From an uncultured virus (IMG/VR IMGVR_UViG_3300008120_000124) (taxonomy: Duplodnaviria > Heunggongvirae > Uroviricota > Caudoviricetes): DNA of 37,203 nt. Under the pieces are notes generated by a model, which saw only the letters and a program-made list of their open reading frames with translations, did no database searches and was not told the DNA's origin. Made by a program: the position numbers and the translations under genes. Positions 2 to 37,134 of the stretch are shown one piece after another (position 1 is the first letter of the stretch; the number at the start of each line of letters is the position of its first letter). The stretch lies in the IMG/VR virus record IMGVR_UViG_3300008120_000124, one strand, 5' to 3'.

Positions 2-2605
2 TCTAGAGACGAAAAACTTATTTATTTAAAAAACAAATTGTCAGATCTTTATTTAAGATCTTCTAAGGAACAAGTAGAAAGAGACCCAAGAAAAAAAGCT
101 TTAAGTATAAAATACTCACAGGCAATACTGGAGATAGAAAAAGAACCCACTATAGATCTTAAATCTAAAACTCCAGACTTAGGTTTTTTCTGGAAAATTA
201 AAAACTTTTCTGATGTAGATAACCCAAGAATACAAGTTTTACATAAAGTATTATTAGAAGCAAAACAAAGGCTCAATATTTTTTCAAAAAATTTGGAAGA
301 AAACCATGATAATTTGTTTTTAAAGCTAGTGAATGAAAGGGTTGGTCCTAACGACAAAATGAATAAAGCAGCTTTGAAAGGACTTGAAATGGTTCACTTC
401 GCCTCTATGGCTACTTGGAATCCAATTCTTGCTGCTGGTGTAGTCGCCGCACATAATGCTATTGCTTCTAAAACACAAATGGATACTAGAGATTTTTACG
501 CGTTTATGTGGAGAAAGTCAGATGAGATAGGGGGAAGTGGTTACTATCTTAATACAAAAAATACTTATGTAAAGAATGGTAAAGAAGTTCCAATGACAAA
601 AGCTGAGCAAGATTATAGAAACTACGTTCATAAAACAATGAAGGAGGAGTATAATAAATTTGCTAAAGAAATAGTTGGTTTTGATGAAGTAACTAGACAA
701 CCTATTTATAGATACAGTTCTTTAGGTTTACCAGAAGAAATGCCCTTAGATTTCATGCCTAGAATACCTAAAAGTATAAATGAAATTAGAGAGGAAGAAA
801 TAAAAACTTCTGGTTATGGAGCAGGATTAATGGGTCTTAAAACCACTGTTGGAGAAGAATTTAAAAGAAGCTTAAATGGTTTCTTTGAAGATAAATATGG
901 TAGAGGGTCTGAAGGAATACAATTTAGGTATTTTAAACACACTGATTCTCCAGGTATAGTAGACGCAGAAAACCACAGCTTTAACGGCCAAATCGCTTTC
1001 AAAATGTTCATGATGTCCATGAAAACTAAGCAAGAAATGGACCCTCTTTATGATCTAGCTAGGGGCGTTCGTAATGCTTTAGATGAAGAGCTTATGGAAA
1101 GTGGTGAAGAAGCTAGGTATTCTAATACAGTTCAATGGTTAGATGATGAAATATATACTCAAATATTAGGGAGACAAAAAACTGAAAAAGTTTTAACCAG
1201 AGCAGTAAGATGGAAAGCTGGTAAGTTAACTGAAAAAGTAACAGGCATAAAAGAAGGCACTGACGTAAGAATATCTGAAATCGAAATAGTTCGTTGGCTA
1301 AGAACTTCTGTATCTTTTTTAACACTTGGATTCAAAGTTATTTCCCCAATAAGAAATGGTATATATGTAACATTGCAAACAATATCCCAGTCAACTAAAA
1401 ATATAGTAACAAAAGGTTTGTCTAAAATATATGGAGTCGATGTAGAAGAACTAGGACAAATAGATTTAGTTGGTGGTAAAATAGTTTTTAATGATTATAT
1501 TGCTAAGGCAATTATGGGAAAACCAGAGGAATCTAAATTATGGAATATTGCTAAAGCGATTAATTGGTTGCCAGATAACTACGTAATAAGCGACGAGGAT
1601 ATTAAAAAAATGGAAGCTGTCTCTAAAATAGGTCTTGGAGAAAATGCTTATGCTGCTTATTCATTATTTGAAAACTTTTCATCCCTTTGGCATTTGGCTG
1701 GATTATTAAAATCAACTAAAGTATTAGATAAAGATGGAAACAAAATATCCCTTTGGGATGCTCATGATGATAAAGGTGGGTGGAACATGGGTGTTCGCGG
1801 CGTAGTAGAAAACTCCGACGGAACAACTACCGAACTTAAAGAGCTTACGGCAATGGAGATAAAGGCTCTTAAAAGAACTCACGAAAGAGTATCTGGCTCT
1901 TACAGAAAAGATGAAAAAATCGCTATGGAAGCTTCTGTATGGGGAGACTTCTTAGCTCAATTTCAAAAACACGCATTCCAATATGTTAAAGTTTTATTCG
2001 GGTCTAAGTATAGAGATCGCAGTATTGGTAAATATGTTTTAGTTGGAAAGAAGCCAGATGGTATGCCTATGTATGAATGGCATTCCGAAATACTTCAGGG
2101 ACAAATAAAGATATTCTTTGCTGCTTTGTTTGCTGCTATTCAGGGAAAGCATATGGATTACATGACTGGAGGAGATCTTGGAGAAGCTACTTTGAAGAAT
2201 GCAAGAATTAGAGCTATGTCTTCATTAATAAACACGCTTATATGGTGGTTAACAATGTTAGCCATTTACTCTTGGGCATTTGATGATGAAGAAGAAAAGA
2301 CTCCATTAGGAAAATCTGCTGCAAGAATTGTAACAGATATGTCTCGATTCCTTTCCTTAAAAGATATTCTTGATGCAACAGATAAACCAGTAGTATCTTT
2401 GGAGGTAGCAAACAAAATAGGTAAATCTACCTGGGCACTTCTTACTGAAGGTATGGCTGGAGAAGTGGATAGACAAGGTTGGCCTAAGGGCCTTAGAGGG
2501 TTTTTAACTCTCACACCCGGTTATTCTTCTAGATCACAAATAGAACAGATACTTGGTAATGATGAAGACCCAAGTTTTCTTTATGGCATCTACCCACTTA
2601 AATAG
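2..2605 (+). CDS. C-terminal part of a giant, probably virion-associated (ejection/cargo-type) protein; 5' end outside the window
   Basis: The frame is open from base 2 (tct aga gac gaa...) to TAG at 2603-2605. It has hydrophobic helices near the C-terminus and is convergent with the replication block, as in Crassvirales layouts. All 18 Trp codons are TGG. Function is inferred from size and position only. Confidence 0.6.
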   Translation, partial: SRDEKLIYLKNKLSDLYLRSSKEQVERDPRKKALSIKYSQAILEIEKEPTIDLKSKTPDLGFFWKIKNFSDVDNPRIQVLHKVLLEAKQRLNIFSKNLEENHDNLFLKLVNERVGPNDKMNKAALKGLEMVHFASMATWNPILAAGVVAAHNAIASKTQMDTRDFYAFMWRKSDEIGGSGYYLNTKNTYVKNGKEVPMTKAEQDYRNYVHKTMKEEYNKFAKEIVGFDEVTRQPIYRYSSLGLPEEMPLDFMPRIPKSINEIREEEIKTSGYGAGLMGLKTTVGEEFKRSLNGFFEDKYGRGSEGIQFRYFKHTDSPGIVDAENHSFNGQIAFKMFMMSMKTKQEMDPLYDLARGVRNALDEELMESGEEARYSNTVQWLDDEIYTQILGRQKTEKVLTRAVRWKAGKLTEKVTGIKEGTDVRISEIEIVRWLRTSVSFLTLGFKVISPIRNGIYVTLQTISQSTKNIVTKGLSKIYGVDVEELGQIDLVGGKIVFNDYIAKAIMGKPEESKLWNIAKAINWLPDNYVISDEDIKKMEAVSKIGLGENAYAAYSLFENFSSLWHLAGLLKSTKVLDKDGNKISLWDAHDDKGGWNMGVRGVVENSDGTTTELKELTAMEIKALKRTHERVSGSYRKDEKIAMEASVWGDFLAQFQKHAFQYVKVLFGSKYRDRSIGKYVLVGKKPDGMPMYEWHSEILQGQIKIFFAALFAAIQGKHMDYMTGGDLGEATLKNARIRAMSSLINTLIWWLTMLAIYSWAFDDEEEKTPLGKSAARIVTDMSRFLSLKDILDATDKPVVSLEVANKIGKSTWALLTEGMAGEVDRQGWPKGLRGFLTLTPGYSSRSQIEQILGNDEDPSFLYGIYPLK

Positions 2606-2617
2606 TGGGCGTCACTC

Positions 2618-2669
2618 AAAAAACATCCCCCTGCCCTCTCGCAAGAGAAGACAGGGGGTTTTTGTTTTT
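2618..2669. terminator. Bidirectional intrinsic terminator between convergent gene blocks
   Basis: CCCCCTG (2627-2633) pairs with CAGGGGG (2652-2658) around an inner stem with a GCAA loop. An A-tract lies on one side and a T-tract on the other. Confidence 0.8.
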
Positions 2670-3273
2670 ACTGAACTCCTTTAAGGGCTTCCAGTAGATC
2701 AGTTACTTTTCGGTTGTACTTGTCTTGCCAGCGGATCGGCAGGATACTGTAGAAGAGCTTGAGCAGTTCTTGCTCGTCTTTGGTGAGAGACTTCTTGCCG
2801 GTGATGGTCATAATGGTCAGGATAGAGTCCTCGATAAACTTATCAATCTCCTGCTCAGCCATCGGCTTATTTTTGCAGTTGTTGCACTCCCCTTTGCAGG
2901 CGCAGTAGCCCGGATCAATGAGTTTCTCTGCCAGGGATTGAGGCGTTTCTTCATGGTACGAAAAGCAGCACTTGATGAGCTTTTTCCTTGTTTCTTCTGA
3001 AGCGAGGGTAGCGCCGGAGAATTTGGCTGGATCAACAGACTTTGGGTAATACCCCGCTATTTGGTACGGGATCCTCATGTCCGTGAGTTGACGTCGCATT
3101 TCGATGAACAAAGGCTCTGCTACGAGAAGGAAATCCTGATCATCATACTGCATTGGAAAGCAGTCGATCATGTCCTCAGTTTCTTCGATGGGACGGTTGT
3201 CGATGCCATTTTCTGTGGAGAATAGTGGGCGGAGTTGCTCCAGTGGAACCAGAAGAAATTTCTTTTTGGTCAT
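2668..3273 (-). CDS. Hypothetical protein with Cys cluster (CACKGECNNC)
   Basis: 201-aa ATG..TAA ORF with an AT-rich leader. Confidence 0.75.
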   Translation of the reverse strand: MTKKKFLLVPLEQLRPLFSTENGIDNRPIEETEDMIDCFPMQYDDQDFLLVAEPLFIEMRRQLTDMRIPYQIAGYYPKSVDPAKFSGATLASEETRKKLIKCCFSYHEETPQSLAEKLIDPGYCACKGECNNCKNKPMAEQEIDKFIEDSILTIMTITGKKSLTKDEQELLKLFYSILPIRWQDKYNRKVTDLLEALKGVQ

Positions 3274-3298
3274 TGTTAATTTGTTTGGTGAATGTTAA

Positions 3299-3350
3299 TA
3301 AAAAAGAAAACCCCCATCCCTCCGTAATGGAGAGTGGGGGTTCTTTGTTT
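3299..3350 (-). terminator. Intrinsic terminator-like hairpin
   Basis: Minus strand reads GAACCCCCA...TGGGGGTTTTCTTTTTT. Confidence 0.65.
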
Positions 3351-3374
3351 TCATAAGTCTACTTTTGCTTCAGG

Positions 3375-3794
3375 CTAATTTTTAGCCCTTGAGAATAAGT
3401 AAAGATCGACAACTATGGACATAATGTCCTGCACTCGTGACGTTTCGGCGTTTAGTTTGTGGATCTTTTTAGTCAGTCTTTTCACAACCGTACTCTTAGT
3501 CTCCGACTCAAAAGCTTTCTTATTCTTGCTCTTTGCGGTCTCATAATAAATGTAAGCCTGGGACATGAATCTTCCGAAAGAAGGGGAAGAGCGTTCAATT
3601 GATTTAAGTATAAACGTCTTCTTATCCCTCCTTACTTCCTCTAATTCATAGAGGTCTTTTTCACTTAACCCAAGCTCATTTAGCGATAGATCTTTGAGAT
3701 TATCATACCGCCCGATCAGCTTAAGCCGATTTCAGTTCGTAATCCTCGTGAGAAAGGTCCAATTCGATCGTAGTTTGATCTGCGACCTTCTCAT
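3375..3794 (-). CDS. Hypothetical protein, 139 aa if TGA is read as Trp
   Basis: ATG at 3794 gives MRRSQIKLRSNWTFLTRITN[TGA 3732-3734]NRLKLIGRYDNLKDL..., in frame with the 3375..3566 ORF. There is no in-frame ATG between the TGA and 3566. Confidence 0.6.
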
Positions 3795-4338
3795 TCAGTT
3801 CGACACTGTCGTTATAGTATCCATATACTTCATTACGTGGAAATGGTTTGCTATATACTTCCGCACCATCAGGCAACACAACTCCTATCTCTCGCTCCCA
3901 TCTTTGCTTCCACAAATCGCTCTTTAGGAAAACTAGCCTATTTCCGTAGCGGGAGTGTGATGGATTATCAGGGAAGTATTTGTCTACCACTTTCCGATCT
4001 GCCTCAGAATATTTGCCCTCAATAACTTTAAGGACAAAGTTCTCTCTTACCTCTTCCGGTGTTGAGAACACAAAGAGTATTCTTCCATCCTGCGGTGAAT
4101 ACTGCTCTTTAAAATGTGGATTTGATTTAAGGTGCTCCACAAGTTCCTGAGGAATGCTAGAGTTGTACTCCATTATGAAATACTTACCTTCCTTTCAGTT
4201 ACGATACTCGGGACGCTGATGGTCACCAAGATATGTCTGGGTATAGAAGGCTTTATCAAAAACGCTGAGGGGTTCGTTCTTGCGTAGTTCAAAGATTGGA
4301 GAAATAAAGTAGGTGCTTACTGCGTGATTATGTGTCAT
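3721..4338 (-). CDS. Phage hypothetical protein downstream of the exonuclease, 205 aa with TGA=Trp
   Basis: ATG at 4338 gives MTHNHAVSTYFISPIF...PEYRN[TGA 4195-4197]KEGKYFIMEYN..., joining the 3721..4173 ORF. Confidence 0.8.
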
Positions 4339-4368
4339 ATAGTTACCTTTTAGACTGTTTAAGTTTTA

Positions 4369-5382
4369 TTAGGTGAATACTTTAAGGGGTATCCTCCCTT
4401 CATTTTGATAGATTTCTCTAGGGTATATTCATTGGTCAGTTTCCACATGCCAAAGATAATCCTCAAGAAGTTGGTAAATTCCTTTATGATATTTGTTATT
4501 AAAGTTGCCTCCAGTAAACCCAGCTTCTCTCTCCTCCTTAGAGGTAGTGTAGATTAAAGCGGGATTAAAAGATGAGGTTTTAGTCTCAGCTACTATAAAG
4601 ATAAAGTCCTTTAGAGTATAACCTTCTTGAAGTAGATCATACACTGGAGACTCTTTTGTCTTTAAAGCATACTCATATAAAGCAGCTTGTGTGTAGTAGC
4701 CGTATAGAATATAGTTAAGTGGGAATTCATAAACAGATTTCCCTATTGTTTTTAGATCAAAAGGCTCTATAGTTTTTTCTTGGTGGTCGATCTTAATCCC
4801 ATCCAAGAGAGCTTTAAACTCATGATCTTTAAGAGTAAAATATATAGGTACTTGGTGAAGTAATTCTTCATGTATTTTATTTCTTTGAAAGTATGAAAAT
4901 GCGTAGGGTGAATCCATAACTAAAGATACAGCCTTTTTAGCTGAGTCGTATTCATCTTTAGATAGAATTGTATACCCATCTTCTTTATAAGTATTATAGT
5001 ATTCAACAGCGTCTGGTGAAGTTCAGAATTTATTAATCACCCAATCAGCACTCATCTTATAACCACTCATTCAGTAAGCACTCATGTAATCTTCCTTAGG
5101 AGAGTCTTTAGTTATCCCCTTAGGTAAGTTAGAAACAAATGTGCCCATAAAACCATAAGGCTTATTTACTTCGAGTACTTTAAACTTACTAACTCAGGCT
5201 TTAGGATCTGTTAGTAAACAGTCTACTGCTGAGCCTATTCTTAAAGAAGCCGAGTCATCTTCAAATAGTTCTGGGTTATCCTTCTTTAGTTTTAGTATTC
5301 TTGGATTTGCGATTGCTTTTAGCAGGGAGTTGGATATTCTCGGAGATTTGTAATATTCTGTTATCGGATCATTCTCTATCAT
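4369..5382 (-). CDS. PD-(D/E)XK exonuclease (RecE/ExoVIII-like), 337 aa, four TGA=Trp
   Basis: ORFs 5194..5382 and 4429..4917 share a frame. The only interruptions are TGA at 5194, 5071, 5023 and 4429. Motifs: ISNSLLK, GSAVDCLLT, KALLDG...DLKT, YxxQAALY, and C-terminal WHVETDQ[W]IYPREIY, ending at TAA 4369. Confidence 0.85.
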
Positions 5383-5389
5383 TCTTTAT

Positions 5390-5743
5390 TCACTTTTTTA
5401 ATATATCTATACATACTAACACCTCTTTTTGGTTTGTAGGCATTAATAGTAACCACCCCTTATTCTTTATCGTATACTTAAAGATCTTTCATCTCAGGTC
5501 AAATGCGGGCCTTCTAAGACCCTTTGTCTCGATTACTCAATTCTTTCCGCTAAAGTCTGGAGAATATACAATATTTTGATACTTGTTATTCTTTACTTTA
5601 AGTTGTTTGTTTCTCTTTTCGATGTCAATTCCTTTAAAAACAAAGGAAGGGAATAACTCAATTTCCTTTTCGTACTCAAAAGTTATCCCCTCCTTCGTTA
5701 GTTGTTCTCAAGCGAATTCCTCGAGGTTATTGCGGGTTCTCAT
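5390..5743 (-). CDS. T7 endonuclease I-like Holliday junction resolvase (PD-(D/E)XK), missed by the standard code, three internal TGA=Trp
   Basis: Manual translation: MRTRNNLEEFA[W]EQLTKEGITFEYE...YSPDFSGKN[W]VIETKGLRRPAFDLR[W]KIFK...PTNQKEVLVCIDILKK. Internal TGAs are at 5708, 5537 and 5489. The 3' end is uncertain because the next in-frame stop (5390-5392) is itself TGA. Confidence 0.85.
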
Positions 5744-6486
5744 TTCTTCTTGTTGAGGGCTACGTGCAGTTTGTCCATGTAGCTTCTCAGAGCCAAGGCA
5801 TCCTCATGCACGAGATTTGTGTTGACGTTGACCACCTCCAGTTCTTTGGAGTCAGGATCGACAGTGATTGTAACGGTTGCGTAGTCGAGATTGAGCGCTT
5901 CGACAGTCTCTTTTGCAAGAGCGTAAGCTTCGTCTCGGTCGGTAAGGCAAGAGGGCATTGCTTCACGCAGGATGCCATCGGTAATGAAGTTTCGTCCGTT
6001 GTTCAGTCTGGACGGCGCGTTGGGGATTGTGGTAACAGTGCCACTAATTGCCCCTTCAGTTTTTTTCTGGAACACACCTTCGAAGCCCGGTCCATTGAAT
6101 GCATTGATCGCTTGCACCACTTCTTGCAGGGAGCTAAAGTCCATTTGCAGGCCGTGGGACAAAAGCGCCGGGAAGAAGCCGTCGTCAAAGGAAAACTCGT
6201 TCATGAAGTCTACTGCCAGAAACGCATCTTCTTTGTTGAAGAATTGTTTTTTGTTGTAGAAGTCTGGAACGGGTATGCCCTTGAGATTCAGGGCTTTCAT
6301 CAGGCGGTTCTTATCTTTCGTCAAGCTGACGGCTTCAGGAGGATTTATATGCACTTTCTGTACGAACTTTTTGTCCATTGTGCCATTGAAGCATGCAGAA
6401 CATGGGTAAGTGGGCCCGAAGAAAAGAGAACCAGCGGAAGCCACTTTTGATCTTGTTTCAGGATCTAAGAAGAAATTCATTACCAA
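5740..6486 (-). CDS. ATP-grasp (RimK-like) fold protein, divergent
   Basis: Motifs INPPEAVSLTKDK, GIPVPDF, ALNLDYATV and EVVNVNT (canonical form is EVN). Confidence 0.6.
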   Translation of the reverse strand: MVMNFFLDPETRSKVASAGSLFFGPTYPCSACFNGTMDKKFVQKVHINPPEAVSLTKDKNRLMKALNLKGIPVPDFYNKKQFFNKEDAFLAVDFMNEFSFDDGFFPALLSHGLQMDFSSLQEVVQAINAFNGPGFEGVFQKKTEGAISGTVTTIPNAPSRLNNGRNFITDGILREAMPSCLTDRDEAYALAKETVEALNLDYATVTITVDPDSKELEVVNVNTNLVHEDALALRSYMDKLHVALNKKK

Positions 6487-7139
6487 ATAATTGGTTTAGT
6501 TAACTTATCGTTAACTTGTGTGAAACATTTACATCCTTTGAACAGCCTGTAGCTGAAGGGAGAGGGATGAGCACTCTCTATTATAATGTGTTTCGCATTG
6601 ATTTTAGATTTAAACTTCTGGGCTTTTTTGCCCCAAAGCAACCAAACTAGTTTATCCTTCTTATTAAGAGTGTTTATAACTTCAGAAGTAAATTCACGCC
6701 ATACTTCTAGATGGCTTTCAGGTTTTCCTTGTTCGACTGTGAGTGCTGTGTTTAATAGTAAAACGCCTTGTGGGGGGAGGTGCTCTAGAAATGAAACAGA
6801 ATTATCGAATCCCATAGAAGGCTTGCCGGTATCTTCTTCGATCTCCTTAAAGATATTACGTAAAGATGGTGAGATCTTCCCGTTTCTTGGGTTATCAAAA
6901 GCGATACCAGTTGCACTGCCATCATGGTAAGGGTCCATACCGAGTATTACTACACGTACGTCGTCAAATGGAACCTCTTTAAAGGCCCGAAAAATTGAGT
7001 GCGTTGTAGGGTAGATTTTTTTGGTTTCCTCTTCCGCCATTATAAAAGGGATGATGTCTTTTTTGAAAACATCGAAAGCCTTGTTTAATGGCCATACCCA
7101 ACTATCCCCTACATAGGGCTTCATATTCCTGTGGTTCAT
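6480..7139 (-). CDS. ung: Uracil-DNA glycosylase, family 1
   Basis: VVILGMDPYH, PSLRNIFKE, QGVLLLN, LWGKKAQ and HPSPFS motifs. Confidence 0.95.
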   Translation of the reverse strand: MNHRNMKPYVGDSWVWPLNKAFDVFKKDIIPFIMAEEETKKIYPTTHSIFRAFKEVPFDDVRVVILGMDPYHDGSATGIAFDNPRNGKISPSLRNIFKEIEEDTGKPSMGFDNSVSFLEHLPPQGVLLLNTALTVEQGKPESHLEVWREFTSEVINTLNKKDKLVWLLWGKKAQKFKSKINAKHIIIESAHPSPFSYRLFKGCKCFTQVNDKLTKPIIW

Positions 7140-7513
7140 TGATATATCATGGTGTCTTTTAGGATTTCTGAGCGATTGAACACGGTACGCATAAGAACAA
7201 CCCTAACAGAATCCGGGCACTCTTCTTCGCAATCAAAATCGCATCTGTGTTTGAATTCTTTTATACCCGACTCTTCAGTTGGTTGATCGGTAGGGATCTG
7301 GTATAGATAGGGAGATCCATCGCTGTACTCCCATAGATGCACATCGTAGTAGGTATTATCAAGGACGGCGTCCTGTACGAGCACATCGAGTTTGTCCGAA
7401 GTTTTCTCAAAGAAATCGTACATTACTACGATGGACGCAGCTACCGAAGAAAGCATCAAGGTGAAAGAGATCAATAAGATCAATTCTAGACGCTTAAAAT
7501 GGGAGATTATCAT
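7136..7513 (-). CDS. Hypothetical membrane-anchored protein
   Basis: N-terminal hydrophobic helix. Its TGA stop overlaps the ung ATG (ATGA). Confidence 0.7.
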   Translation of the reverse strand: MIISHFKRLELILLISFTLMLSSVAASIVVMYDFFEKTSDKLDVLVQDAVLDNTYYDVHLWEYSDGSPYLYQIPTDQPTEESGIKEFKHRCDFDCEEECPDSVRVVLMRTVFNRSEILKDTMIYQ

Positions 7514-8462: not shown

Positions 8463-8761
8463 TTTTTATGTACTCTTATTTTTATTATTTTTTCAGCCTT
8501 ATATTTGTCTATAACAAAACACTCTGCCTGAGACTCCATATTTAAGTGGAAGTAGCGAGTGAACATAAACCAGTGTTTAGTTAGTTTTATAGTCTCTCCT
8601 AAGCTGTCTATAAAAGTACAGCTAAAGGTTCCTATTATAATGGAATCCCCAATAGTGGGGTTGACCTTCAGAAGTTCTTCGAGCTTCTTTGGATCACCGT
8701 TAATGAATTCAGATAAAGTCTTCATGCTTTTATGAGCGGAATCGAACCACTCTTTACCCAC
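8459..8761 (-). CDS. Hypothetical protein
   Basis: 100-aa ORF with a GTG start. Its TGA stop overlaps the primase ATG. Confidence 0.6.
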   Translation of the reverse strand: MGKEWFDSAHKSMKTLSEFINGDPKKLEELLKVNPTIGDSIIIGTFSCTFIDSLGETIKLTKHWFMFTRYFHLNMESQAECFVIDKYKAEKIIKIRVHKK

Positions 8762-8766
8762 CAGGT

Positions 8767-8805
8767 AAAATAGAAAAGGGCGATAAGATTTCTCCTATCG
8801 CCCTA
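8767..8805 (-). terminator. Intrinsic terminator-like hairpin after the SSB-like gene
   Basis: Minus strand reads AGGGCGATAGGA GAAA TCTTATCGCCCT TTTCTATTTT. Confidence 0.7.
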
Positions 8806-8809
8806 ATCA

Positions 8810-9388: not shown

Positions 9389-9407
9389 AGTGATTATATT
9401 GTTTTAG

Positions 9408-19630: not shown

Positions 19631-19636
19631 TCAGTA

Positions 19637-29705: not shown

Positions 29706-29745
29706 TTTTTGATTTTATAAGGGGGGAATAAATCCCCCCGTGAAC

Positions 29746-30192
29746 TCAATATTGATCCAAGTTGTGCTTCTCTATAATAGAGATGAGGGTTTGAGCATAA
29801 TGAGGCGCTGTAGCATAACGGCAACGCTTCAACCCATAAGCCCATTTTTTGTAATCGTTTCCGTGCTTCTTTAGAGACCCGTATCTTTTGCCAGATAGAA
29901 GTTCAGCGTAAGCAGTAAACGCAGCTTGGGCGGTTTGATACCGGTAGAATCTGTCGTTTTTGTGATCATCTGGATGTTGTATGCAGTGACCTTTCTGACA
30001 TCTTTTTCCAAAACATTTCATCGCAAAATAGTTGTGGAATTGCGACAGTTTGTTTGTTCCGGATCCAGATTCCAAAAGCGCTTGCCCTACAGAAATAGCT
30101 ATGGGAATACCATAATCTTCTTGAATTTTCTTTGCAAAAGGCAGAGCGTATTTGATGAATGCAGCCGGTCTTGCTTGTTTTGGGAGTAACAA
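29746..30192 (-). CDS. GH73 (FlgJ-like) glucosaminidase/muramidase domain
   Basis: GQALLESG, NYFAMKC and YATAPHYA motifs. There is no N-terminal ATG, and the frame is open upstream into the previous ORF. Confidence 0.88.
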   Translation of the reverse strand: MLLPKQARPAAFIKYALPFAKKIQEDYGIPIAISVGQALLESGSGTNKLSQFHNYFAMKCFGKRCQKGHCIQHPDDHKNDRFYRYQTAQAAFTAYAELLSGKRYGSLKKHGNDYKKWAYGLKRCRYATAPHYAQTLISIIEKHNLDQY

Positions 30193-30233
30193 AAAATTCG
30201 GCTTACCGGCAGAAAAGACCTCTATTGTTCTTT

Positions 30234-30545
30234 TTATAACCTTACTTTTTCGGCAGGTTTGAGCTTTCTGCTGACAGATGCTTCTGCCCTTGGAATTGTT
30301 TTGGGCTCCACAACTTCTTCCTGAACAGGGATTACAGATTCCACAAGTGGAGGAACTGTTTTTTCCAGAGAATCCAGTGCTTCAGCTGGAATTTCGGTGT
30401 TCTCTTTTGATTTGGGTTCTGTCCGCATAATGAGGACTGCCAGAGTTATAACCATGCAAAATGCTATGGCGCTGCTGGCTGATGTTTTAGGTTCTTTCGT
30501 AACCGTTTTTTGCACCACAGGGGGTTGCCATTTTTGTATTGACAT
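30234..30545 (-). CDS. Membrane anchor plus Pro/Glu-rich linker, probably the N-terminal part of the GH73 enzyme
   Basis: One TM helix followed by a low-complexity linker. The GH73 ORF is in its -1 frame. Confidence 0.6.
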   Translation of the reverse strand: MSIQKWQPPVVQKTVTKEPKTSASSAIAFCMVITLAVLIMRTEPKSKENTEIPAEALDSLEKTVPPLVESVIPVQEEVVEPKTIPRAEASVSRKLKPAEKVRL

Positions 30546-30646
30546 ACGGCGAGTTTTTTATTGGTGAAATTAAAAAGCCCACTACTACTAAAACCCAATA
30601 CAGGAACGGTACTGTATTGTAGGGGAGAAATAGTGTGGGCAACAAC

Positions 30647-30952
30647 CTAATTTTCATCGGGCTGTTTACCGTTCTTGGACCATGTGTTTTGCGCTCTTTC
30701 GCGCATTTTCTTGAGTTCTTGATACTCGTCAAAGAGAATTTTGAACTGTTCATAGGCGTTCGGGTAGTCGCGTTCGGGGAGCTCAAGTAGTGAAAGAACT
30801 TTGTCTCTTACCCGTTGCATTGCATCGGTAAACGTCGGTTCCGGAAGAGCTTTGCTTTTCTTTGATAGCATTGCTGATATGAGTATCGCAATTACTACCG
30901 CGCCGATAGAAAGAATCATGAATTCTTCCTCAGTGAGATTTATTTCTTGCAT
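30647..30952 (-). CDS. Small membrane-anchored protein
   Basis: ATG ORF with an N-terminal TM helix. Confidence 0.7.
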   Translation of the reverse strand: MQEINLTEEEFMILSIGAVVIAILISAMLSKKSKALPEPTFTDAMQRVRDKVLSLLELPERDYPNAYEQFKILFDEYQELKKMRERAQNTWSKNGKQPDEN

Positions 30953-31101
30953 CTTCTTAGAATTTTGTTAAAGACGTGAGAAAATACGTGCTGGTAGTTA
31001 CTGTAAAGTACAATTACAAACCAAGCAATTCCAACTGCAGTCACTATAGCATCTGCGTAGATAGCAAAGTACTGCTCTTTAGTTATGGAAATTTTATCCA
31101 T
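30940..31101 (-). CDS. Small membrane protein (53 aa, below the ORF-track cutoff)
   Basis: MDKISITKEQYFAIYADAIVTAVGIAWFVIVLY... It shares the leader TTAACAAAATTCTAAG with the next gene. Confidence 0.55.
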   Translation of the reverse strand: MDKISITKEQYFAIYADAIVTAVGIAWFVIVLYSNYQHVFSHVFNKILRRCKK

Positions 31102-31136
31102 TGGCTTAGAATTTTGTTAAAAAAGTTGACAAAAAA

Positions 31137-31168
31137 CTTGCTTTTTGTATTTTAATTTTGTATCTTTG
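31137..31168 (+). promoter_or_regulatory. Bacteroidota sigma-A-type promoter (-33/-7)
   Basis: CTTG (31137-31140), a 20-nt spacer, then TATCTTTG (31161-31168). This matches the (T)TTG-N19-21-TAnnTTTG consensus. Confidence 0.75.
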
Positions 31169-31171
31169 CGC

Positions 31172-31545
31172 CTGTATTACTAGGACGTTGGAAATCCTAG
31201 TTCACCCCTACATCACCCTTCGGTAAGGTCAAGAGGGGGGTTAGAAGTCGGATTACCTCTGAATTGAGGGTTTTCTCCGATAGATACGAAACTAAACTAC
31301 ATACAGCCTACAGTGAGTTACAATTAGCTTGGGTATGACCCATGAAGCCAACCAGGTACGTGTCGTAAGGAAACTTACTAATCGTGGCGTTGTTGCTCTA
31401 ACGATAAAGAGTATTACGATTGTAACGAGGTTTTCGTTGCACTGCTGTAGATGTACCCCGGACAAGGAGGATCAAGTTGTAGTTGTGAAAGAAGATAAGG
31501 CTTACCCTTAAGAGTCCCTGAAAGTGGGACAGGGGATACCTATAT
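31172..31545 (+). ncRNA. Candidate large (~370 nt) structured non-coding RNA, antisense to all flanking genes
   Basis: It starts right after the promoter and has no credible ORF. Helices: ACTAGGA/TCCTAGT, CCCCT/AGGGG, TCGGA/TCCGA with CCTC/GAGG, AACTACA(31295)/TGTAGTT(31478), TACAGC/GCTGTA, GTTACAATT/GATTGTAAC, GTAAG-GAAA-CTTAC and GTCCC/GGGAC. Confidence 0.65.
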
Positions 31546-31731
31546 CTAGAGGGGAAGTTTGTTAAAGATGAAGGATGTAATTGGAGCCGAAATAAATTTG
31601 ACAACTAAAACCAACATAATAACAAAGAAAACATCATTGTCTCTCATAGAAGAATGCCAAATGAAATGTGCAAGCATTCCAATTGGAATCATTCCTATTA
31701 TAACGGCAATTAAAAATTTGAGTTTTTTCAT
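31546..31731 (-). CDS. Small two-TM membrane protein
   Basis: 61-aa hydrophobic ORF. Confidence 0.6.
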   Translation of the reverse strand: MKKLKFLIAVIIGMIPIGMLAHFIWHSSMRDNDVFFVIMLVLVVKFISAPITSFIFNKLPL

Positions 31732-31923
31732 GCCACAATGAGTTTTTCTGTTTGAAACAATTCTGCGAAAGGGTTAAAGAACCCGCAAAGAAATCCGAGT
31801 GCGATTGCAATAATCATTGTTTTCTTTTTTTAATGTGTGAAACAAATTTGTGGATGCCAACTGCAATTATGATTGCGGTAATAAGAATCCACAGGTGAAA
31901 AAGAAATGTTGTAAACTCGCTTT

Positions 31924-32124
31924 TCATCGGTCAAACTTTTTAGAAAGATAATCTAATAAAGCGAGGACTATTTTGTGTGATGTAAAACCTGCAAAGAGAA
32001 GACAAATACCAAAAACGCAAAAGTTTCTGCTTTGAAGAATGTACATACACAAAAGAGTTATACTTCCAGTTAGAAATGCCCAGAAGCAAATTACTCCTAA
32101 GGAAGCTATGCAATATTTATTCAT
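31924..32124 (-). CDS. Small two-TM membrane protein
   Basis: 66-aa hydrophobic ORF with ATGA coupling. Confidence 0.6.
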   Translation of the reverse strand: MNKYCIASLGVICFWAFLTGSITLLCMYILQSRNFCVFGICLLFAGFTSHKIVLALLDYLSKKFDR

Positions 32125-32399
32125 ACGTATTTACTGTAGTCAAAGTTAGGGTCAATAAAATTTTTGTAGATCATAAGCCCAATGCGTTTTACGATTCTTA
32201 TAGCTAGCATTACTTTAATGACAACTAGTAAGTCGTAAAGAAGTGGGTAAGTTGTTGTGCGAAATTGAAAACCATATTCTTCAAATAGAAATTCAAAGAA
32301 ACTTCCTTCAATTATGCACATTGTGCCGTAAAATAAGGCGGCCAACAAAAGTCCCAAAATCATTACAATTTTGAGAATGAAATCAGCAAATTTTTCCAT
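32121..32399 (-). CDS. Small two-TM membrane protein
   Basis: 92-aa hydrophobic ORF. Confidence 0.65.
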   Translation of the reverse strand: MEKFADFILKIVMILGLLLAALFYGTMCIIEGSFFEFLFEEYGFQFRTTTYPLLYDLLVVIKVMLAIRIVKRIGLMIYKNFIDPNFDYSKYV

Positions 32400-32556
32400 C
32401 GTTCCTTAAAAATGTACCCAATCCGAAAAGGAAAAGGTAGGTGAACAATTGTTCTGCTGTAAAGTTGTCAAAAGCATGCTTAATAGCAGCACCGACAATT
32501 GCAGCGGTAAAAAGATGAAAGGTGTTAAACCTCTTCACATAAAGGAGTTTCAGCAT

Positions 32557-32904
32557 TCAGAAAATTTTATTTTGTTTACAAAACTCTACTGCTTCCTGTA
32601 AAGAGGCAGCGTAGAAAGATTTCGGTGAGTTTGAATTACTTGGCCGTATAGTGTCTCCAACTACAGTATAAAAGTTTGGCGCATTGTGTTCAGAAATTGA
32701 CATATATTTTTGATATATCATTTCCGGCGTTTGCAAAACTTTATATTCTCTAGCAAATTGACGTATTATAAAAAGCGTTGAAGATGCATCAGAATCGTTT
32801 AAAAACGAGACGAGTGAGTATAGTACGCCAATGCTAAAATAAAAGCTCTGAGAGGCCTTTAAATCAGCGACAAGTACATTCTTTTGGAAGTTCATGTTGT
32901 TCAA
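32557..32904 (-). CDS. Hypothetical protein
   Basis: 115-aa ORF with a TGA stop. Confidence 0.6.
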   Translation of the reverse strand: MNNMNFQKNVLVADLKASQSFYFSIGVLYSLVSFLNDSDASSTLFIIRQFAREYKVLQTPEMIYQKYMSISEHNAPNFYTVVGDTIRPSNSNSPKSFYAASLQEAVEFCKQNKIF

Positions 32905-32964
32905 AAGATTAAGGGAGACAACATTACATCATCCCCCTTATGAAAACAATTCAAACTGGTTTTT

Positions 32965-33570
32965 TTATCTTTCCCATATAGGGCTGAAGATATTCCAAAG
33001 AAGCACCGCGTTTTCGGATGTACCCATTGCATAAACAGATCTTCCAATGCAGTCTATTGCTTGTAGAGAAAACTCTCCGTAGCGATAAACTAAACGCACT
33101 GTAGTTTCGGGATGTGATTGATGGGAGTCATCCCAATAACATTCTCCCCATTCAAATTGATAGAAAATGGAGGCAGAACGCGGGTGTTCAATACGTATCA
33201 CAATATTCGGATCGGTGTAGACTGCAGATATTCCAATGGAATCTGAGTCTTCTTCTTTACTGTGCATTACAAAAACCCCATTTTTTAAGTCTAGGGAAAA
33301 GTTTGCAGGCCAGTGTACCCAATCAACATCTTGGATTGTCAGGGAGTCTGTAATAAATTGGCCGATTTGGCGTAAATCGCCGTAGGCTTGTGCTGTATAA
33401 GAATGAGCGATAACAGTATCACCCATTTTTTCAGCGGTGTGGATAGTGTATTCTTCTCCCAAAGAATTCTGGGAATAAGAAGATACACCGATTTGGATTG
33501 TTGACTTATCGGACTGTGCCGAGACCAGAAGGGGGAAAAATCCCATCAAGATAAAGAAAAACAGTTTCAT
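32965..33570 (-). CDS. Secreted/periplasmic hypothetical protein
   Basis: Probable start MKLFFFILMGFFPLLVSAQ, a Bacteroidota-style signal peptide ending in SA-Q. Confidence 0.7.
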   Translation of the reverse strand: MKLFFFILMGFFPLLVSAQSDKSTIQIGVSSYSQNSLGEEYTIHTAEKMGDTVIAHSYTAQAYGDLRQIGQFITDSLTIQDVDWVHWPANFSLDLKNGVFVMHSKEEDSDSIGISAVYTDPNIVIRIEHPRSASIFYQFEWGECYWDDSHQSHPETTVRLVYRYGEFSLQAIDCIGRSVYAMGTSENAVLLWNIFSPIWER

Positions 33571-33775
33571 TTTTTGCCTGTTTATAAATGATTGAATCTT
33601 TCTTACAAAGATATATGTATTCACTATCGAATACATAATAATCAGTGTCAGAAATTATTGTGTCAGGGATTAAAGTTGTATTAGTTTTTCTTGGGATAGA
33701 GTTTATTATAAGAGCGATGCCCGCTATACCAATTGCGAACATCATCAAAGCCGTGAATTTATCTATTGCTTTCAT
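33506..33775 (-). CDS. Small membrane-anchored protein
   Basis: The ATG directly follows the tRNA-like element, and there is an N-terminal TM helix. Confidence 0.6.
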   Translation of the reverse strand: MKAIDKFTALMMFAIGIAGIALIINSIPRKTNTTLIPDTIISDTDYYVFDSEYIYLCKKDSIIYKQAKNETVFLYLDGIFPPSGLGTVR

Positions 33776-33776
33776 G

Positions 33777-33860
33777 CCCCGGTAATGGGAGTCGAACCCA
33801 CAATTTGTTTTGTAAAGCGTGCGAACACTGAGTTACATTACAAACCACCTGTGTACCGGG
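33777..33860 (-). ncRNA. tRNA-like element with intact acceptor stem and T-arm but non-canonical D/anticodon region
   Basis: 7-bp acceptor CCCGGTA/TACCGGG and T-arm GTGGG-TTCGACT-CCCAT. The central long stem (TTTGT/ACAAA plus TGTAA/TTACA) encloses CTCA-GTG-TTCG-CAC-GCT. There is no encoded CCA. Confidence 0.6.
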
Positions 33861-34117
33861 AAAATGCCCCCACAATCTTACGACTACAAGGGCAAACTAA
33901 AACCTTACATCAGCATCCGCTGTTTTTCAACAGTGGTATGACAATAAAACAGCTTCAATGAAAATACTCCCCTATCTTACGACAGAAGAGTAGTATCTAA
34001 ACCTTTCGTTATGCTAGATCCTGATGTGCCCTCTCTTTAGAAGACATTACCAGAATTTCTTAATTCAAAAGAAGCTCCCCCACTTTACTTTTAAAGCGAA
34101 GGAGCAGCCAACCATCG

Positions 34118-34273
34118 TCAGTCTTTTGTAATTCCTCGTGCCTTCCAATAGTCAGTTTGAGGGTTAGTGCAGCTCATTTTAGGAGCACAGGAGCAGAGGA
34201 ATACAGTGACGACAACCGCCAGAGCGAGCAGAAAAAGTTTGATCGCACGGTTGAGTTCATTACTCATTTTCAT
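34118..34273 (-). CDS. Small lipoprotein (51 aa, below the ORF-track cutoff)
   Basis: MKMSNELNRAIKLFLLALAVVVTVFLCSCAPK... (lipobox LCSC). Its TGA stop is followed by a hairpin and U-tract. Confidence 0.65.
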   Translation of the reverse strand: MKMSNELNRAIKLFLLALAVVVTVFLCSCAPKMSCTNPQTDYWKARGITKD

Positions 34274-34324
34274 AAAAAGAGATTTAAATAGTGAAACAAT
34301 TTCTTAAATCAAGAGGAACCCCAC

Positions 34325-34603
34325 TCACTTTTGAATGGGGCCCTCAAGACTCTCATGAAAAGTTTTCTTTTTATATTTTCTACGAGGAGTAGCAAGCTTG
34401 TTCTCGTAGCGTTCTTTTACATCTTCAAAGGTATCTTCTGGAGTGATGTGTAGATTTTTTATTATAGGCACTTTTTTTAAGTATATTATAAGATCCTTTC
34501 TTTTAGCGTAATTGGTTAAAAACCTTAACTGATCCATAAGAGGTATCTCTTTAGAACAGTCAGCATTTTGAGAAAGGTATTCTTTATCGTAATGAATCGC
34601 CAT
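34325..34603 (-). CDS. Hypothetical basic protein
   Basis: 92-aa ATG ORF with a TGA stop. Confidence 0.65.
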   Translation of the reverse strand: MAIHYDKEYLSQNADCSKEIPLMDQLRFLTNYAKRKDLIIYLKKVPIIKNLHITPEDTFEDVKERYENKLATPRRKYKKKTFHESLEGPIQK

Positions 34604-34729
34604 GTTTTTAAGTTAAGCGAGTTTACGTTGTTACGTCCTCACTGCTTTACGAGGGCTTTGAACCTCTTAACTTAAAAAAAGAACCCTCCCTCTTTTGGGA
34701 AGATCCTTCGTTCTCACTATTAAACCTTT

Positions 34730-34981
34730 TTATTCCACAACTTCGAGGATTACGAAAGTCGAGTTTTTTCCTTTGATTGTGTCAGGTGCAGGATTTGTTT
34801 CGTCGATTAAACGACGATCAATCCAGCAGATCTTATGTTGACCTGCTTTTTCACCTGAGATACAAATTGATTTCGCTTCTACCATGTTGTCCTCGCAAGA
34901 AGCAAGAGAGCAGATGGTGAAGAAAGCGATGATTATAAGCACGATGTTTTGTGCTGCAAAGAGGAGAAAGAATTTTCTCAT
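34730..34981 (-). CDS. Small lipoprotein
   Basis: Hydrophobic signal with lipobox LASC. Confidence 0.65.
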   Translation of the reverse strand: MRKFFLLFAAQNIVLIIIAFFTICSLASCEDNMVEAKSICISGEKAGQHKICWIDRRLIDETNPAPDTIKGKNSTFVILEVVE

Positions 34982-34999
34982 GTTGTTAGGTTTATATTT

Positions 35000-35248
35000 T
35001 TAGATGTGAAGAATTTCGTTTTTATAAGGTTTAAGCCTTTTTAGAATACGGCCGTTGTTGAATATGACATTGCTTGGGATTTCTCCGTAACAGTCATACA
35101 CAGTGGCGTAATACCCTAAATGTAAGGCTTGTACTACTACTGAACAAGCAGCACCAATATACTTATACGTTTTAAAGTAGCTTCCACCTTTAGGGTCGCT
35201 TATAAACGCAGTATACTGTGCCACCATTTGTTTTCTCTTTCTTTTCAT
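35000..35248 (-). CDS. Hypothetical protein
   Basis: 82-aa ATG ORF. Confidence 0.6.
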   Translation of the reverse strand: MKRKRKQMVAQYTAFISDPKGGSYFKTYKYIGAACSVVVQALHLGYYATVYDCYGEIPSNVIFNNGRILKRLKPYKNEILHI

Positions 35249-35391
35249 GAGATAGAGATATTTTGTAAGGGTTAAAATAAGGGCAACATTTCTGCCGCCC
35301 TTACAATCTAAATCAACCCTTCAATTAGAAATTTGTGTTTTTCTTTTGATACAGTCCACTTAAGGAGTACTACATACGTACAGTCGCTACG

Positions 35392-35703
35392 TCATCCACC
35401 AAATACGTCTTCGGGAGGAGTTGTTTTTCTTTTCCGAAGGTCAATGCATACCACGAAATCCTCCTTTTTCGAGGATATGCCTACAATCTTAAGGGTAAGA
35501 TAACCCTTTGCAGATTGTGAAAAAGAGACAACCTTGAAGTACACACCGTCCATCTGCCAAAGGGTGGGATGGAGTTCCACAGCTTGAGTAATTGGGTTAC
35601 CCAAGGGGTCCAGATTATTTGTGGGGAGTTCCACAAAGTCTGGAGAAAGAAGCTGAACAAAAACTGGTTTCTTGGTGTTGTTAAACTTCAGAACGTTAAC
35701 CAT
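35392..35703 (-). CDS. Hypothetical protein
   Basis: 103-aa ATG ORF with an A-rich leader. It ends in TGA, with a possible extension to TAG 35308. Confidence 0.65.
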   Translation of the reverse strand: MVNVLKFNNTKKPVFVQLLSPDFVELPTNNLDPLGNPITQAVELHPTLWQMDGVYFKVVSFSQSAKGYLTLKIVGISSKKEDFVVCIDLRKRKTTPPEDVFGG

Positions 35704-35840
35704 TTTTTTAGGTTTAAACAGTGAACAATGATTGAGGTTGAGCTACCATGCCCTCCGTGTATTTAGGAATTTATTTAATCTCGTTTCCAAGGAACATATA
35801 CGAGAAAATGGGGGAGAATAGATCTCCCCCGGTATTTACT

Positions 35841-36080
35841 TTAGGTGAGGATCGCATCAGATTCGCCATGAAGTTTGCCCATAACGTAGACTGCGTTAGC
35901 GTATTTAGATACGCGAGTTTTCAGCCACGCTATTTCCATGATAACGTCGTCCCTGTCTTCAGGAGATATCCCCTGCAAAGAATTTACCTTAGAAACCAAA
36001 TCAGCGAAATGATTTTCCACTTTTTTAGTTTCTTCGTGGTCTGTCACTTCTTTGAGTTTGGTGTGGGTTAAATTTTCCAT
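35841..36080 (-). CDS. Hypothetical protein
   Basis: ORF 35841..36110, with a probable start at MENLTH (36080). A hairpin and U-tract follow. Confidence 0.65.
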   Translation of the reverse strand: MENLTHTKLKEVTDHEETKKVENHFADLVSKVNSLQGISPEDRDDVIMEIAWLKTRVSKYANAVYVMGKLHGESDAILT

Positions 36081-36456
36081 GTTGTTAGATTTAAGTTTGA
36101 AAAAATACACGCTTATCTGGGAACTCAGGCAAAGACGCGAGATAGGCTAAAAAGCGTATCTGGTCAGCAGCACTTAAGCACGTGTACATCCACATATCCA
36201 CCAGTTTTCTCTGGATATGCAGTGATTTATCACCATCAGAATGTTTTAGTTTACTTACATGCCTAAACAAACAATCGGCAATGCCACTTTCGTGGAACAG
36301 GGAGTGTGCTGTGGGAATTGTTTTATTACACGCTAATTCCCTATGCGTGGAACCTTACCTAGGATAGGATTTACCGTTGGTTTGTCCTAGGATTTAGAGA
36401 AAAAATAGTTGGACAGTACAAACTGCCCTTACACCTGTTCATTCAGGTTAATTCCT

Positions 36457-36795
36457 TCAACCCCTGTCTGAGGTCATCTCCAGCCAATGTGCTGGAATCC
36501 TGTCTTTGCTGTTTCGTTTTCTTCCGAAGATATTGTAATCCCGTTCAATACGGGAAGCAATCCTTGGTGAAACACGTCTTTTTTTCCTCTTTTCGGGGAT
36601 TACTCCCCATCGTCTCAAACACTGGTAAAAGATGTAGTTTACACTTCCATCATGGAAATGCATTTCTACTCCGTTTACTTCCCAGATTTCCATTGGTTGG
36701 AAACCGTCTTCTTTAGGGGTATACCCTTTGAAGATCATGGTTACTGGAATTCGTACGCCTGTTTTTTTGTTTGATATGGTGAATGTCTTTACCAT
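36457..36795 (-). CDS. Hypothetical protein
   Basis: 112-aa ATG ORF with a TGA stop. Confidence 0.65.
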   Translation of the reverse strand: MVKTFTISNKKTGVRIPVTMIFKGYTPKEDGFQPMEIWEVNGVEMHFHDGSVNYIFYQCLRRWGVIPEKRKKRRVSPRIASRIERDYNIFGRKRNSKDRIPAHWLEMTSDRG

Positions 36796-36921
36796 GAGAG
36801 ATGCGTTTACACTCGCCAGTGTTTTTTGTTAAATGTGACCTCATTAAATGAACGCGATTGGCCTAACACGGTTTATACTCCCCAATCGGAGTTGAAGAAA
36901 AGAGGGGGAATTGCTTCCCCC

Positions 36922-37134
36922 TTATTTATCTTCATTGTATTCTTTTATGAATTCCCTTATGTTTTTAACCTCCTTACAATTTCCGTATATCATATCTATG
37001 CTTCCGGATACATTTTGGAATATGGCTTTTTCGGCTTTACCGTTTTTTGTGAGGTAGGCCACACTGAAGACAGTGCATCCTGAGGCCATTGTTTTTTCTT
37101 CATACGCTATGATTTGTAGCATGAGATTTGCCAT
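36922..37134 (-). CDS. Hypothetical protein
   Basis: 70-aa ATG ORF, followed by the hairpin GGGGAA GCAA TTCCCC and a U-tract. Confidence 0.65.
   Translation of the reverse strand: MANLMLQIIAYEEKTMASGCTVFSVAYLTKNGKAEKAIFQNVSGSIDMIYGNCKEVKNIREFIKEYNEDK

Follow-up and report, generated by a model that had tools for sequence, protein, structure and literature searches.

Introduction

The use of TGA as a tryptophan (Trp) codon in part of the genome is known from crAss-like phages. Here we compare the described systems with a phage represented by IMG/VR record IMGVR_UViG_3300008120_000124, a stretch of 37,203 nucleotides (nt) of uncultured Caudoviricetes DNA that we call the window. In the phages of Yutin et al. 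2021 (PMC7886860), crAss-like genes go together with TGA as Trp in part of the genome, the large terminase gene (TerL) is recoded, a suppressor tRNA is found in some members and undetected in others, and the code shifts over short phylogenetic distance. Borges et al. (10.1101/2021.08.26.457843) reported an enrichment of recoded codons among structural genes and those for lysis and proposed that lysis is controlled in this way. In their systems a standard-code region with the code-change machinery adjoins the recoded genes, and in-frame stops occur in 26-71% of the genes in clades with standard-code hosts, as compared to about 90% in phages of recoded hosts. Recoding of the replication machinery is described there as 'variable', and as 'mostly' alternative in Lak. 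In the zeta crAss-like phage Lera (PMC12386605), TGA was assigned to Trp from the Trp residues of relatives, tRNA-Sup(TCA) is present, and TGA interrupts TerL, RNA polymerase and helicase; most of the recoded open reading frames (ORFs) are structural, three of four lysin genes and the holin gene are recoded, and the genome has 26 tRNAs. TGAs in PolB and helicase genes were reported both by Yutin et al. and in the Lera paper. Recoding of replication genes is thus not without precedent (Lak, PolB, helicase).

The phage described here belongs to this known class, sharing the features listed above for the phages of Yutin et al., with tRNA(UCA) as the putative suppressor and with a relative (G008) of almost standard code. 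As a new member of these partly TGA-recoded crAss-like phages, it shows a reproducible bias of recoding toward the replication enzymes and the terminase. Its replication (middle) module is the most densely recoded, which sets it apart from the phages of Yutin et al. As in the systems of Borges et al., a standard-code region with code-change machinery adjoins the recoded genes, and few of the genes (24%) have in-frame stops. Unlike in those systems, the holin, both glucosaminidase, capsid and portal genes are free of TGA, TGA still ends 17 of the 93 genes, and no RF1 or TrpRS gene turned up in family scans. In contrast to Lera, the phage has one tRNA and one tmRNA.

The original prediction for this DNA held that recoding is confined to the replication block, where it would act as a checkpoint for entry into DNA replication, and that accessory genes and the large virion gene are ungated. 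Its premise, that phage recoding is mostly a matter of late structural and lysis genes, is half right: it agrees with the enrichment of Borges et al. but not with the variable use of recoding in replication genes that they report, nor with the PolB and helicase TGAs of Yutin et al. and Lera. The observation was confirmed and the interpretation partly supported. We consider it likely that a code switch of the published kind, with early genes in the standard code and later genes recoded, explains the pattern, rather than a replication-only gate.

Distribution of in-frame TGA codons

The window is part of a crAss-like phage genome of about 99.4 kb. A circular composite map of 99,408 bp was built from the window, positions 38392-47053 of G004 and the reverse complement of positions 1-53543 of G002; G004 joins the right end of the window to the far end of G002. 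The related IMG/VR records used were G001 (61 kb), G002 (87 kb), G003 (91 kb) and G004 (57 kb). The family A DNA polymerase (PolA) of G004 is 100% identical to that of the window, and G003 shows 68-99% nucleotide identity. From position 2668 rightward, nearly all genes of the window are on the minus strand, and a 5'-open plus-strand ORF occupies positions 2-2605. The plus-strand block carries TerL, portal, major capsid protein, holin, tail fibres and four giant genes of 652, 4431, 1329 and 2016 codons. The two blocks diverge at the intergenic region 37841-38065, with replication genes on one strand and structural and cargo genes on the other, as in the opposed blocks of Crassvirales. TerL, portal and major capsid protein were matched as crAss-type by phrog_6681, phrog_6547 and phrog_11589. 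In a tblastn search the nearest annotated relatives of the capsid were those of Flavobacterium phage FpV4 (30.5% identity, 99% coverage), crAss001 and phi14:2, and we therefore regard the phage as crAss-like. Because its capsid is nearest to that of FpV4 and one homologue of a giant protein bears a Flavobacteriaceae label, the lineage appears to be environmental and not of the human gut. The capsid relatives also suggest that the host belongs to Bacteroidota. Bacteroidota are not known to depart from the standard code.

Genes were grouped into five modules, with the following counts:

E, standard-code minus-strand block: 33 genes, 5028 codons, 0 in-frame TGAs
P1, plus-strand leader: 9 genes, 1495 codons, 0 in-frame TGAs
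R, replication: 27 genes, 5848 codons, 20 in-frame TGAs
S, packaging/structural: 20 genes, 10567 codons, 10 in-frame TGAs
V, giant genes: 4 genes, 8428 codons, 5 in-frame TGAs

The density per 1000 codons is 3.4 in R, 0.95 in S including TerL, 0.59 in V and 5.4 in TerL itself. By Fisher tests R differs from E (p = 4e-6), S (p = 8e-4) and V (p = 1e-4). TerL thus carries TGAs at a density similar to that of the replication genes; the other structural genes do not (0.6 per 1000 codons). The order R > S > V, with no TGA in the holin and both glucosaminidase genes, departs from the structural and lysis enrichment of Borges et al. In total, 22 of the 93 genes (24%) contain an in-frame TGA and 71 contain none, and TGA is the stop of 17 genes (12 of the 33 E genes, 5 of the 27 R genes and none of the 33 on the plus strand). 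For annotation this means that the standard table 11 breaks 22 of the 93 genes and table 4 would overextend 17 others, neither alone being correct.

The two complete relatives, G005 and G006 (25-77% amino-acid identity), gave the same picture when TGAs were counted within regions homologous to proteins of this phage (TGAs/codons):

G005: E 0/1725, R 25/4636, P1 0/947, S 8/7001, V 2/7206
G006: E 1/865, R 13/3416, P1 0/1123, S 10/6777, V 1/3626

In 20-kb loci of 31 relatives, the long ORFs on the replication side commonly had 5-10 TGAs and the long opposite-strand ORFs, where present, had 0-3; in the nearer relatives the latter are homologues of the giant genes. Since G005, G006 and the 31 loci repeat the order, the lineage is characterised by recoding that is biased to replication and terminase genes and leaves lysis genes unaffected. 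The map of TGAs over the full genome and its relatives therefore bore out R as the most densely recoded module and did not bear out a restriction to R.

Recoded replication genes

Within the window, sense TGAs were confined to the replication side as predicted, 20 of them in 11 minus-strand genes from 4197 to 20567. We excluded from the curated list a weakly coding ORF with two further TGAs, at 3797 and 3734.

2668-20612, minus: replication block; 11 of its 27 curated genes hold the 20 in-frame TGAs, 51 TGG, 5 genes TGA-ended
20301-20612, minus: first recoded gene of the block; TGA 20567, which is TGA in G005 and TGG in G006
19637-20242, minus: 201-residue protein with no assigned function; TGA 19921
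17527-19407, minus: PolA with 3'-5' exonuclease; TGAs 19320 and 18642 (codons 30 and 256)
14592-15812, minus: SF2 helicase; sense TGA 15695 (codon 40), phrog_16 at residues 28-391
10527-10847, minus: N-terminal half of a Sak4-like ATPase; TGA 10727, phrog_2872 (profile 4-104 of 219)
9773-10423, minus: GIY-YIG homing-endonuclease-like gene between the Sak4 halves; TGAs 10189 and 10114
8810-9388, minus: 192-residue protein, called SSB-like in the original prediction; TGA 9274
7494-8462, minus: primase (Toprim); TGAs 8435, 8093 and 7619, phrog_12622 and phrog_239
5390-5743, minus: DUF1064/Holliday-junction-resolvase-like gene, weak matches below or near threshold; internal TGAs 5710, 5539 and 5491
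4369-5382, minus: PDDEXK/ExoVIII-like nuclease; TGAs 5196, 5073, 5025 and 4431 (codons 63, 104, 120 and 318), phrog_412 at residues 6-286
3721-4338, minus: 205-residue protein with no assigned function; TGA 4197, which is TGA/TGA/TGG in relatives

Reading TGA as a residue fuses the table-11 fragments into whole proteins, and the family matches cross the TGAs; the replication enzymes do need TGA decoding to reach full length. PolA matches PF00476 at residues 232-624 (E 3.6e-69), PF01612 at 21-191 and phrog_17 at 26-621 (E 1.2e-91), and its codon 256 is TGG, TGA and TGG in G005, G006 and G008, respectively. The 192-residue protein had no known family in profile scans, and its TGA is TGA, TAC or TAT in relatives. 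UDG, the DnaB-like helicase and several uncharacterised R proteins contain no TGA.

Four of the five TGA ends in R are ATGA overlaps (5740, 7136, 8459 and 14592). At the SF2 helicase the terminal TGA, 14592-14594, overlaps the ATG of the next gene, and homologues extend 10-20 codons beyond it, so that read-through at this site is possible. Within 1-2 codons of the apparent TGA stop of the DUF1064-like gene (5390-5392), the gene ends with TAG in G006 and with TAA in G008. Suppression of TGA may be partial, with both outcomes tolerated.

The Sak4-like ATPase gene is split over 9408-10847 (minus), the N half at 10527-10847 (profile 4-104) and the C half at 9408-9758 (profile 106-208). Group I intron models gave no match at the gathering threshold in the Sak4/GIY-YIG region, and the arrangement may represent an intron, a split gene or a broken gene. 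The window lacks 93 nt at 9908/9909, in frame within the GIY-YIG gene, that are present in G001, G002, G003 and G004.

Recoding of terminase and giant genes

The original prediction noted that the visible part of the plus-strand giant gene has 18 TGG and no TGA, and concluded that this gene is ungated.

2-2605, plus: C-terminal 867 codons of a giant virion gene of 2016 codons; 0 TGA and 18 TGG in this part

The count is correct for the part within the window, and the conclusion fails for the whole gene, in which codon 254, beyond the window, is TGA. Read with table 11, the gene ends at this codon and starts again 18 codons on. For residues 60-460, 64 homologues were matched and 63 aligned, the window's own truncated form being dropped; at codon 254, 60 of the 63 have W, two have G and one has F. 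The 63 homologues are contiguous and mostly about 2000-2340 residues long (range 1348-3234). The other three giant genes have TGAs at codon 595, at codon 236 and at codons 62 and 205, so that all four carry one or two. Neighbouring giant genes touch or overlap by 7-10 nt when read in code 4, whereas table 11 leaves 55-660 nt between them. In the 4431-residue protein a DYDID string was seen by eye (cf. the DxDxD of virion RNA polymerase); the protein had no family match.

TerL contains 4 TGAs in 746 codons, all within its phrog_6681 match (residues 10-720, E 1.6e-100), and in the visible part of the G002 TerL the phrog_6681 match crosses one TGA. A tail-fibre gene has a TGA at codon 94, and its C-terminal domain (phrog_9017, residues 102-195) has no Met after the TGA. 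In total, 7 of the 20 packaging/structural genes contain TGA. The portal, capsid and holin genes contain none. The holin-like gene adjoins the capsid gene and lies on the strand opposite the glucosaminidase genes.

Assignment of TGA to tryptophan

The alignments show that TGA is Trp at the sense sites, and nothing in them points to Gly (code 25), Ser or Leu. In-frame TGAs fall in conserved genes at positions where relatives have Trp, as is expected of a TGA-to-Trp recoded phage. The nuclease gave 124 homologues at E ≤ 1e-5, of which 120 were listed and 61 aligned at a query coverage of at least 97%; the columns of codons 120 and 318 are W in at least 90% of these 61. At the DNA level we read the nuclease codons in 30 of 78 related loci (the better-matching ones, with three near-identical records omitted). 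Codon 120 is TGG in 21 and TGA in 3 of the 30, codon 318 is TGG in 27 and TGA in 2, and codon 63 is TGG in 12, TGA in 5 and a Phe codon in 13. Over the 35 internal TGA sites of the composite genome, 75 aligned codons were obtained from G005, G006 and G008. Of these, 25 are TGG, 17 are TGA, 12 encode Tyr, 19 are sense codons of other kinds and 2 are gaps; neither TAA nor TAG occurs. The primase TGA at 8093 is TGG in G003.

A codon-usage log-odds model recovered most sense sites and was used as a guide only. As a classifier of TGAs it was noisy and was rejected, for antisense frames scored well and the true stop at 32559 looked like sense. The sequence context of sense and stop TGAs held no usable signal: at +4 a purine is found after 31 of the 35 sense TGAs and 11 of the 17 stop TGAs, which may reflect amino-acid composition.

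The standard-code block

No sense TGA was found from 20.6 kb onward, as had been predicted. Block E, whose first gene (37340-37840) falls just beyond the window, comprises small ORFs and accessory genes, many with TGA ends, and all 39 of its Trp codons are TGG; the accessory block at 20.6-37.2 kb could thus be translated without TGA decoding. The 11 TGA gene ends listed in the original prediction (21724, 25205, 25762, 27530, 29746, 31924, 32121, 32557, 34118, 34325 and 36457) are all ends of table-11 ORFs, and one more lies at 35392. They behave as stops, as seen from TAA in G003, ATGA overlaps and hairpins:

20615-37203, minus: standard-code block E; many intergenic hairpins, poorly conserved in G003
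32121-32123, minus: TGA stop, TAA in G003
32557-32559, minus: TGA stop, TAA in G003
25762-25765, minus: ATGA stop/start overlap, assigned from coordinates and context
29721-29748, minus: TGA stop of a glucosaminidase gene, with a G6/C6 hairpin (29739-29721) 6 nt later
34074-34120, minus: TGA stop of a small lipoprotein-like ORF, then a hairpin with a 14-pair stem (34105-34074)

The last two rows agree with the hairpins predicted directly after TGA 29746 and TGA 34118. Further ATGA overlaps lie at 21724-21727, 14592-14595, 8459-8462, 7136-7139 and 5740-5743 (six in total). The PF01832 match of the glucosaminidase ends at residue 145 of 148, three residues ahead of TGA 29746, and the G005 homologue of the VWA gene ends with TAA no more than 3 codons from the same place.

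Terminator-like sites between 20.0 and 37.2 kb number 39, compared to 15.0 +/- 3.7 in shuffled sequences. A G5-6...C5-6 hairpin recurs 3' of genes on the minus strand at 29721-29739, 26435-26456, 35810-35830, 36903-36922 and about 19600-19625, mostly within the standard-code block.

A putative suppressor tRNA and a tmRNA

The first 6.5 kb of the plus-strand block (38.0-44.6 kb), up to TerL, form the leader P1. Its 9 genes contain no sense TGA, and it holds ThyX and the following features (composite coordinates):

39832-40311, plus: GroES-like (L011 9664-10140, minus)
41164-41410, plus: tmRNA, RF00023 62.9 bits against a gathering threshold of 47 (L011 8560-8808, minus; L026 1543-1789, plus)
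42236-42329, plus-strand block: tRNA(UCA), called by ARAGORN with anticodon tca in G003 and G004
43005-44615, plus: GroEL just ahead of TerL, PF00118 E 1.7e-61 (L011 5360-6967, minus)

A tRNA(UCA) gene is therefore present in records near-identical to the window. The tmRNA lies about 4 kb past the right end of the window and about 0.8 kb upstream of tRNA(UCA), and it shares about 47 nt at its 3' end with the ThyX ORF. Its tag as predicted by ARAGORN is unusually long, with 30 residues ending in LVYA. One tRNA(UCA) and one tmRNA, with no other tRNAs, would make a compact system for one codon with two meanings.

In G005 we found a conventional tRNA of 73 nt (RF00005, 42.9 bits) with the anticodon loop CUUCAAA and with A1-U72 and G73, which we take to be Trp identity elements. 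A scan of four records with the RF00005 profile gave no tRNA, which was a miss, as ARAGORN and cmscan found the UCA tRNA. An exact 23-nt pattern from the 3' half of tRNA(UCA) had no match among the searched genome contigs. Matches to RF01852 in relatives were, where ARAGORN made a call, tRNA-Ser(tga) and tRNA-Gly(acc), and were rejected as suppressors except for the G005 site. ARAGORN with relaxed thresholds and introns gave about 90-110 calls per genome, which were discarded as noise.

No tRNA was found in the window itself. An intergenic stretch at about 33776-33810 (minus), just upstream of the gene at 33506-33775, ends like the T-arm and acceptor 3' half of a tRNA (GGGTTCGACTCCC...); no tRNA was called there by ARAGORN or Rfam (E ≤ 1).

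Proposed timing of a code switch and alternative explanations

If early genes are read in the standard code and later genes are recoded, the early products and the phage tRNA(UCA) would be made under the standard code of the host. As the suppressor, presumably charged with Trp, accumulates, the middle (replication) and then the late (packaging, virion) proteins would be made at full length. E and P1, which flank the divergent region at about 37.8-38.1 kb, are translatable in an unmodified standard-code cell. Modules farther from this region need UGA = Trp somewhere, namely in 11 of 27 R genes, TerL, several tail and virion genes and the four giant genes. The symmetry of the TGA-free stretches, 17 kb leftward and 6.5 kb rightward, fits the published model, in which genes in the host code are read first and include the code-change machinery; tRNA(UCA) lies within the TGA-free P1. 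The density of TGA may further track tolerance of inefficient decoding: it is high in enzymes presumably needed in low copy (TerL and the replication proteins), each giant cargo gene has about one such codon, and the portal and capsid genes have none. Untouched lysis genes, with replication and terminase genes the most recoded, favour such tolerance or early-versus-later gating over a lysis timer.

Several points weigh against this switch. The gene models were curated by us, with in-frame TGA called sense in S and V and stop in E, and the sense calls are backed by homology at many but not all sites (5 of 35 have no aligned relative). A clean switch does not predict the five R genes that still appear to end in TGA. 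Two lysin-like glucosaminidase (PF01832) genes, 24826-25425 and 29746-30192 (minus), lie in the presumed early block. The tRNA(UCA) itself, of 94 nt, is odd in its long extra arm and poor D stem, and it scores 38.9 bits against the tRNA-Sec model RF01852, below the gathering threshold of 47. Such an arm is usual in tRNAs for Ser, Leu and Sec, and not in those for Trp. The architecture thus suggests Ser, Leu or Sec, where the alignments instead say Trp. In G006, with the same recoding pattern, no UCA tRNA was seen. The classes early, middle and late are inferred from gene position and by analogy with crAss001 and phi14:2 (PMC10136315), a source that gives the Crassvirales order as early regulatory, middle replication and late TerL, structural and cargo genes. 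One metatranscriptome run contained a share of 0.16 of the sampled sequence words.

We then weighed this switch against other explanations. A checkpoint specific to replication, with the virion and accessory genes free and perhaps a carrier state maintained, draws on the higher density in R than in S and V, on its recurrence in two relatives and in the 20-kb loci, and on the 867 visible giant codons without TGA. It is improbable, because the 4 TGAs in TerL and those in 7 of 20 packaging/structural genes and all four giant genes mean that the same suppressor would gate packaging and virion assembly too. Nor did an integrase, repressor or partition gene turn up in general family scans. A host that itself decodes TGA (code 4 or 25), with the apparent TGA stops read through, would agree with the homologues running beyond helicase TGA 14592 and with the two recoded relatives that have no ARAGORN-detectable UCA tRNA. 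It is very improbable indeed: E and P1 have no TGA among 46 Trp codons (chance about 3e-7 at the R share of 0.28), two TGA ends are TAA in G003, six are ATGA overlaps, and in relatives the VWA gene, the DUF1064-like gene and two more close with TAA or TAG at a distance of 1-4 codons or less from the same place. In addition, TGA aligns with W and not with G, the phage has its own tRNA(UCA), and 24% of its genes contain TGA as compared to the roughly 90% of Borges et al. for phages of recoded hosts.

In phages of code-4 hosts of the Mycoplasma and Spiroplasma type, TGA encodes Trp. The present phage differs from them in using TGA to end genes as well, in that 71 of its 93 genes lack an in-frame TGA, and in that entire modules are free of it. 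A third explanation is that E is a fast-turnover accessory region drawn recently from standard-code sources, recoded codons marking residence time with the suppressor. This is credible though doubtful as the main cause. Only patches of 23.3-37.2 kb align to G003 (68-96%), compared to 94-99% for R, S and V; GC, which is 0.34-0.41 over most of the window, rises to 0.46 at 25-28 kb; homologues of E genes number 8 of 33 in G005, 5 of 33 in G006 and 1 of 33 in G008; and TGA ends are commoner in E than in R and absent from the plus strand. Against turnover, the E homologues conserved in G005 are also TGA-free, sense TGAs are likewise absent from P1, a conserved leader (GroEL, ThyX) and no region of turnover, and the symmetry about the divergent region fits a rule of transcription order. 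Turnover and timing are mutually compatible, and recent acquisition could contribute to the lack of sense TGAs in E, which of all parts of the genome is conserved least and richest in GC. It is also conceivable, if unlikely, that TGA is a truly ambiguous codon and not a switched one, with stop and Trp meanings within single genes (the DUF1064-like gene, the helicase). In that case the relative amounts of suppressor and release factor 2 would hold down the output of the replication enzymes and TerL, the tmRNA would clear or tag products and ribosomes from failed UGA decoding, and the long-arm tRNA(UCA) would be a new kind of Trp-inserting suppressor.

Other features of the window

The window lacks 106 nt at 23795/23796, between the ORFs 23762-24616 and 23331-23795, that are present in G001, G002 and G004. 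The match of ORF 23331-23795 to an AAA domain is limited to its C-terminal part (profile 48-128), so that the difference may split an ATPase gene in the window strain, or it may be one of assembly. Two stretches of about 445 nt each, at 3274-3720 and 31102-31545, hold no convincing ORF, and the second coincides with a local reversal of AT skew.

A type-P3 twister ribozyme was found in an intergenic region of E at 34610-34673 (minus), with 49.8 bits against a gathering threshold of 39.9; it is kept in G003 and occurs also in L011 (16463-16526, plus). A pistol-ribozyme-like match, also intergenic in E, at 36834-36892 (minus) reached 30.7 bits (E 0.01), below the threshold of 34.5. The stretch 27530-29705 (minus) encodes a MoxR-like AAA ATPase, weakly matched by PF20030, and after it a protein with a weakly matched VWA domain; such pairs are known from MoxR-VWA systems.

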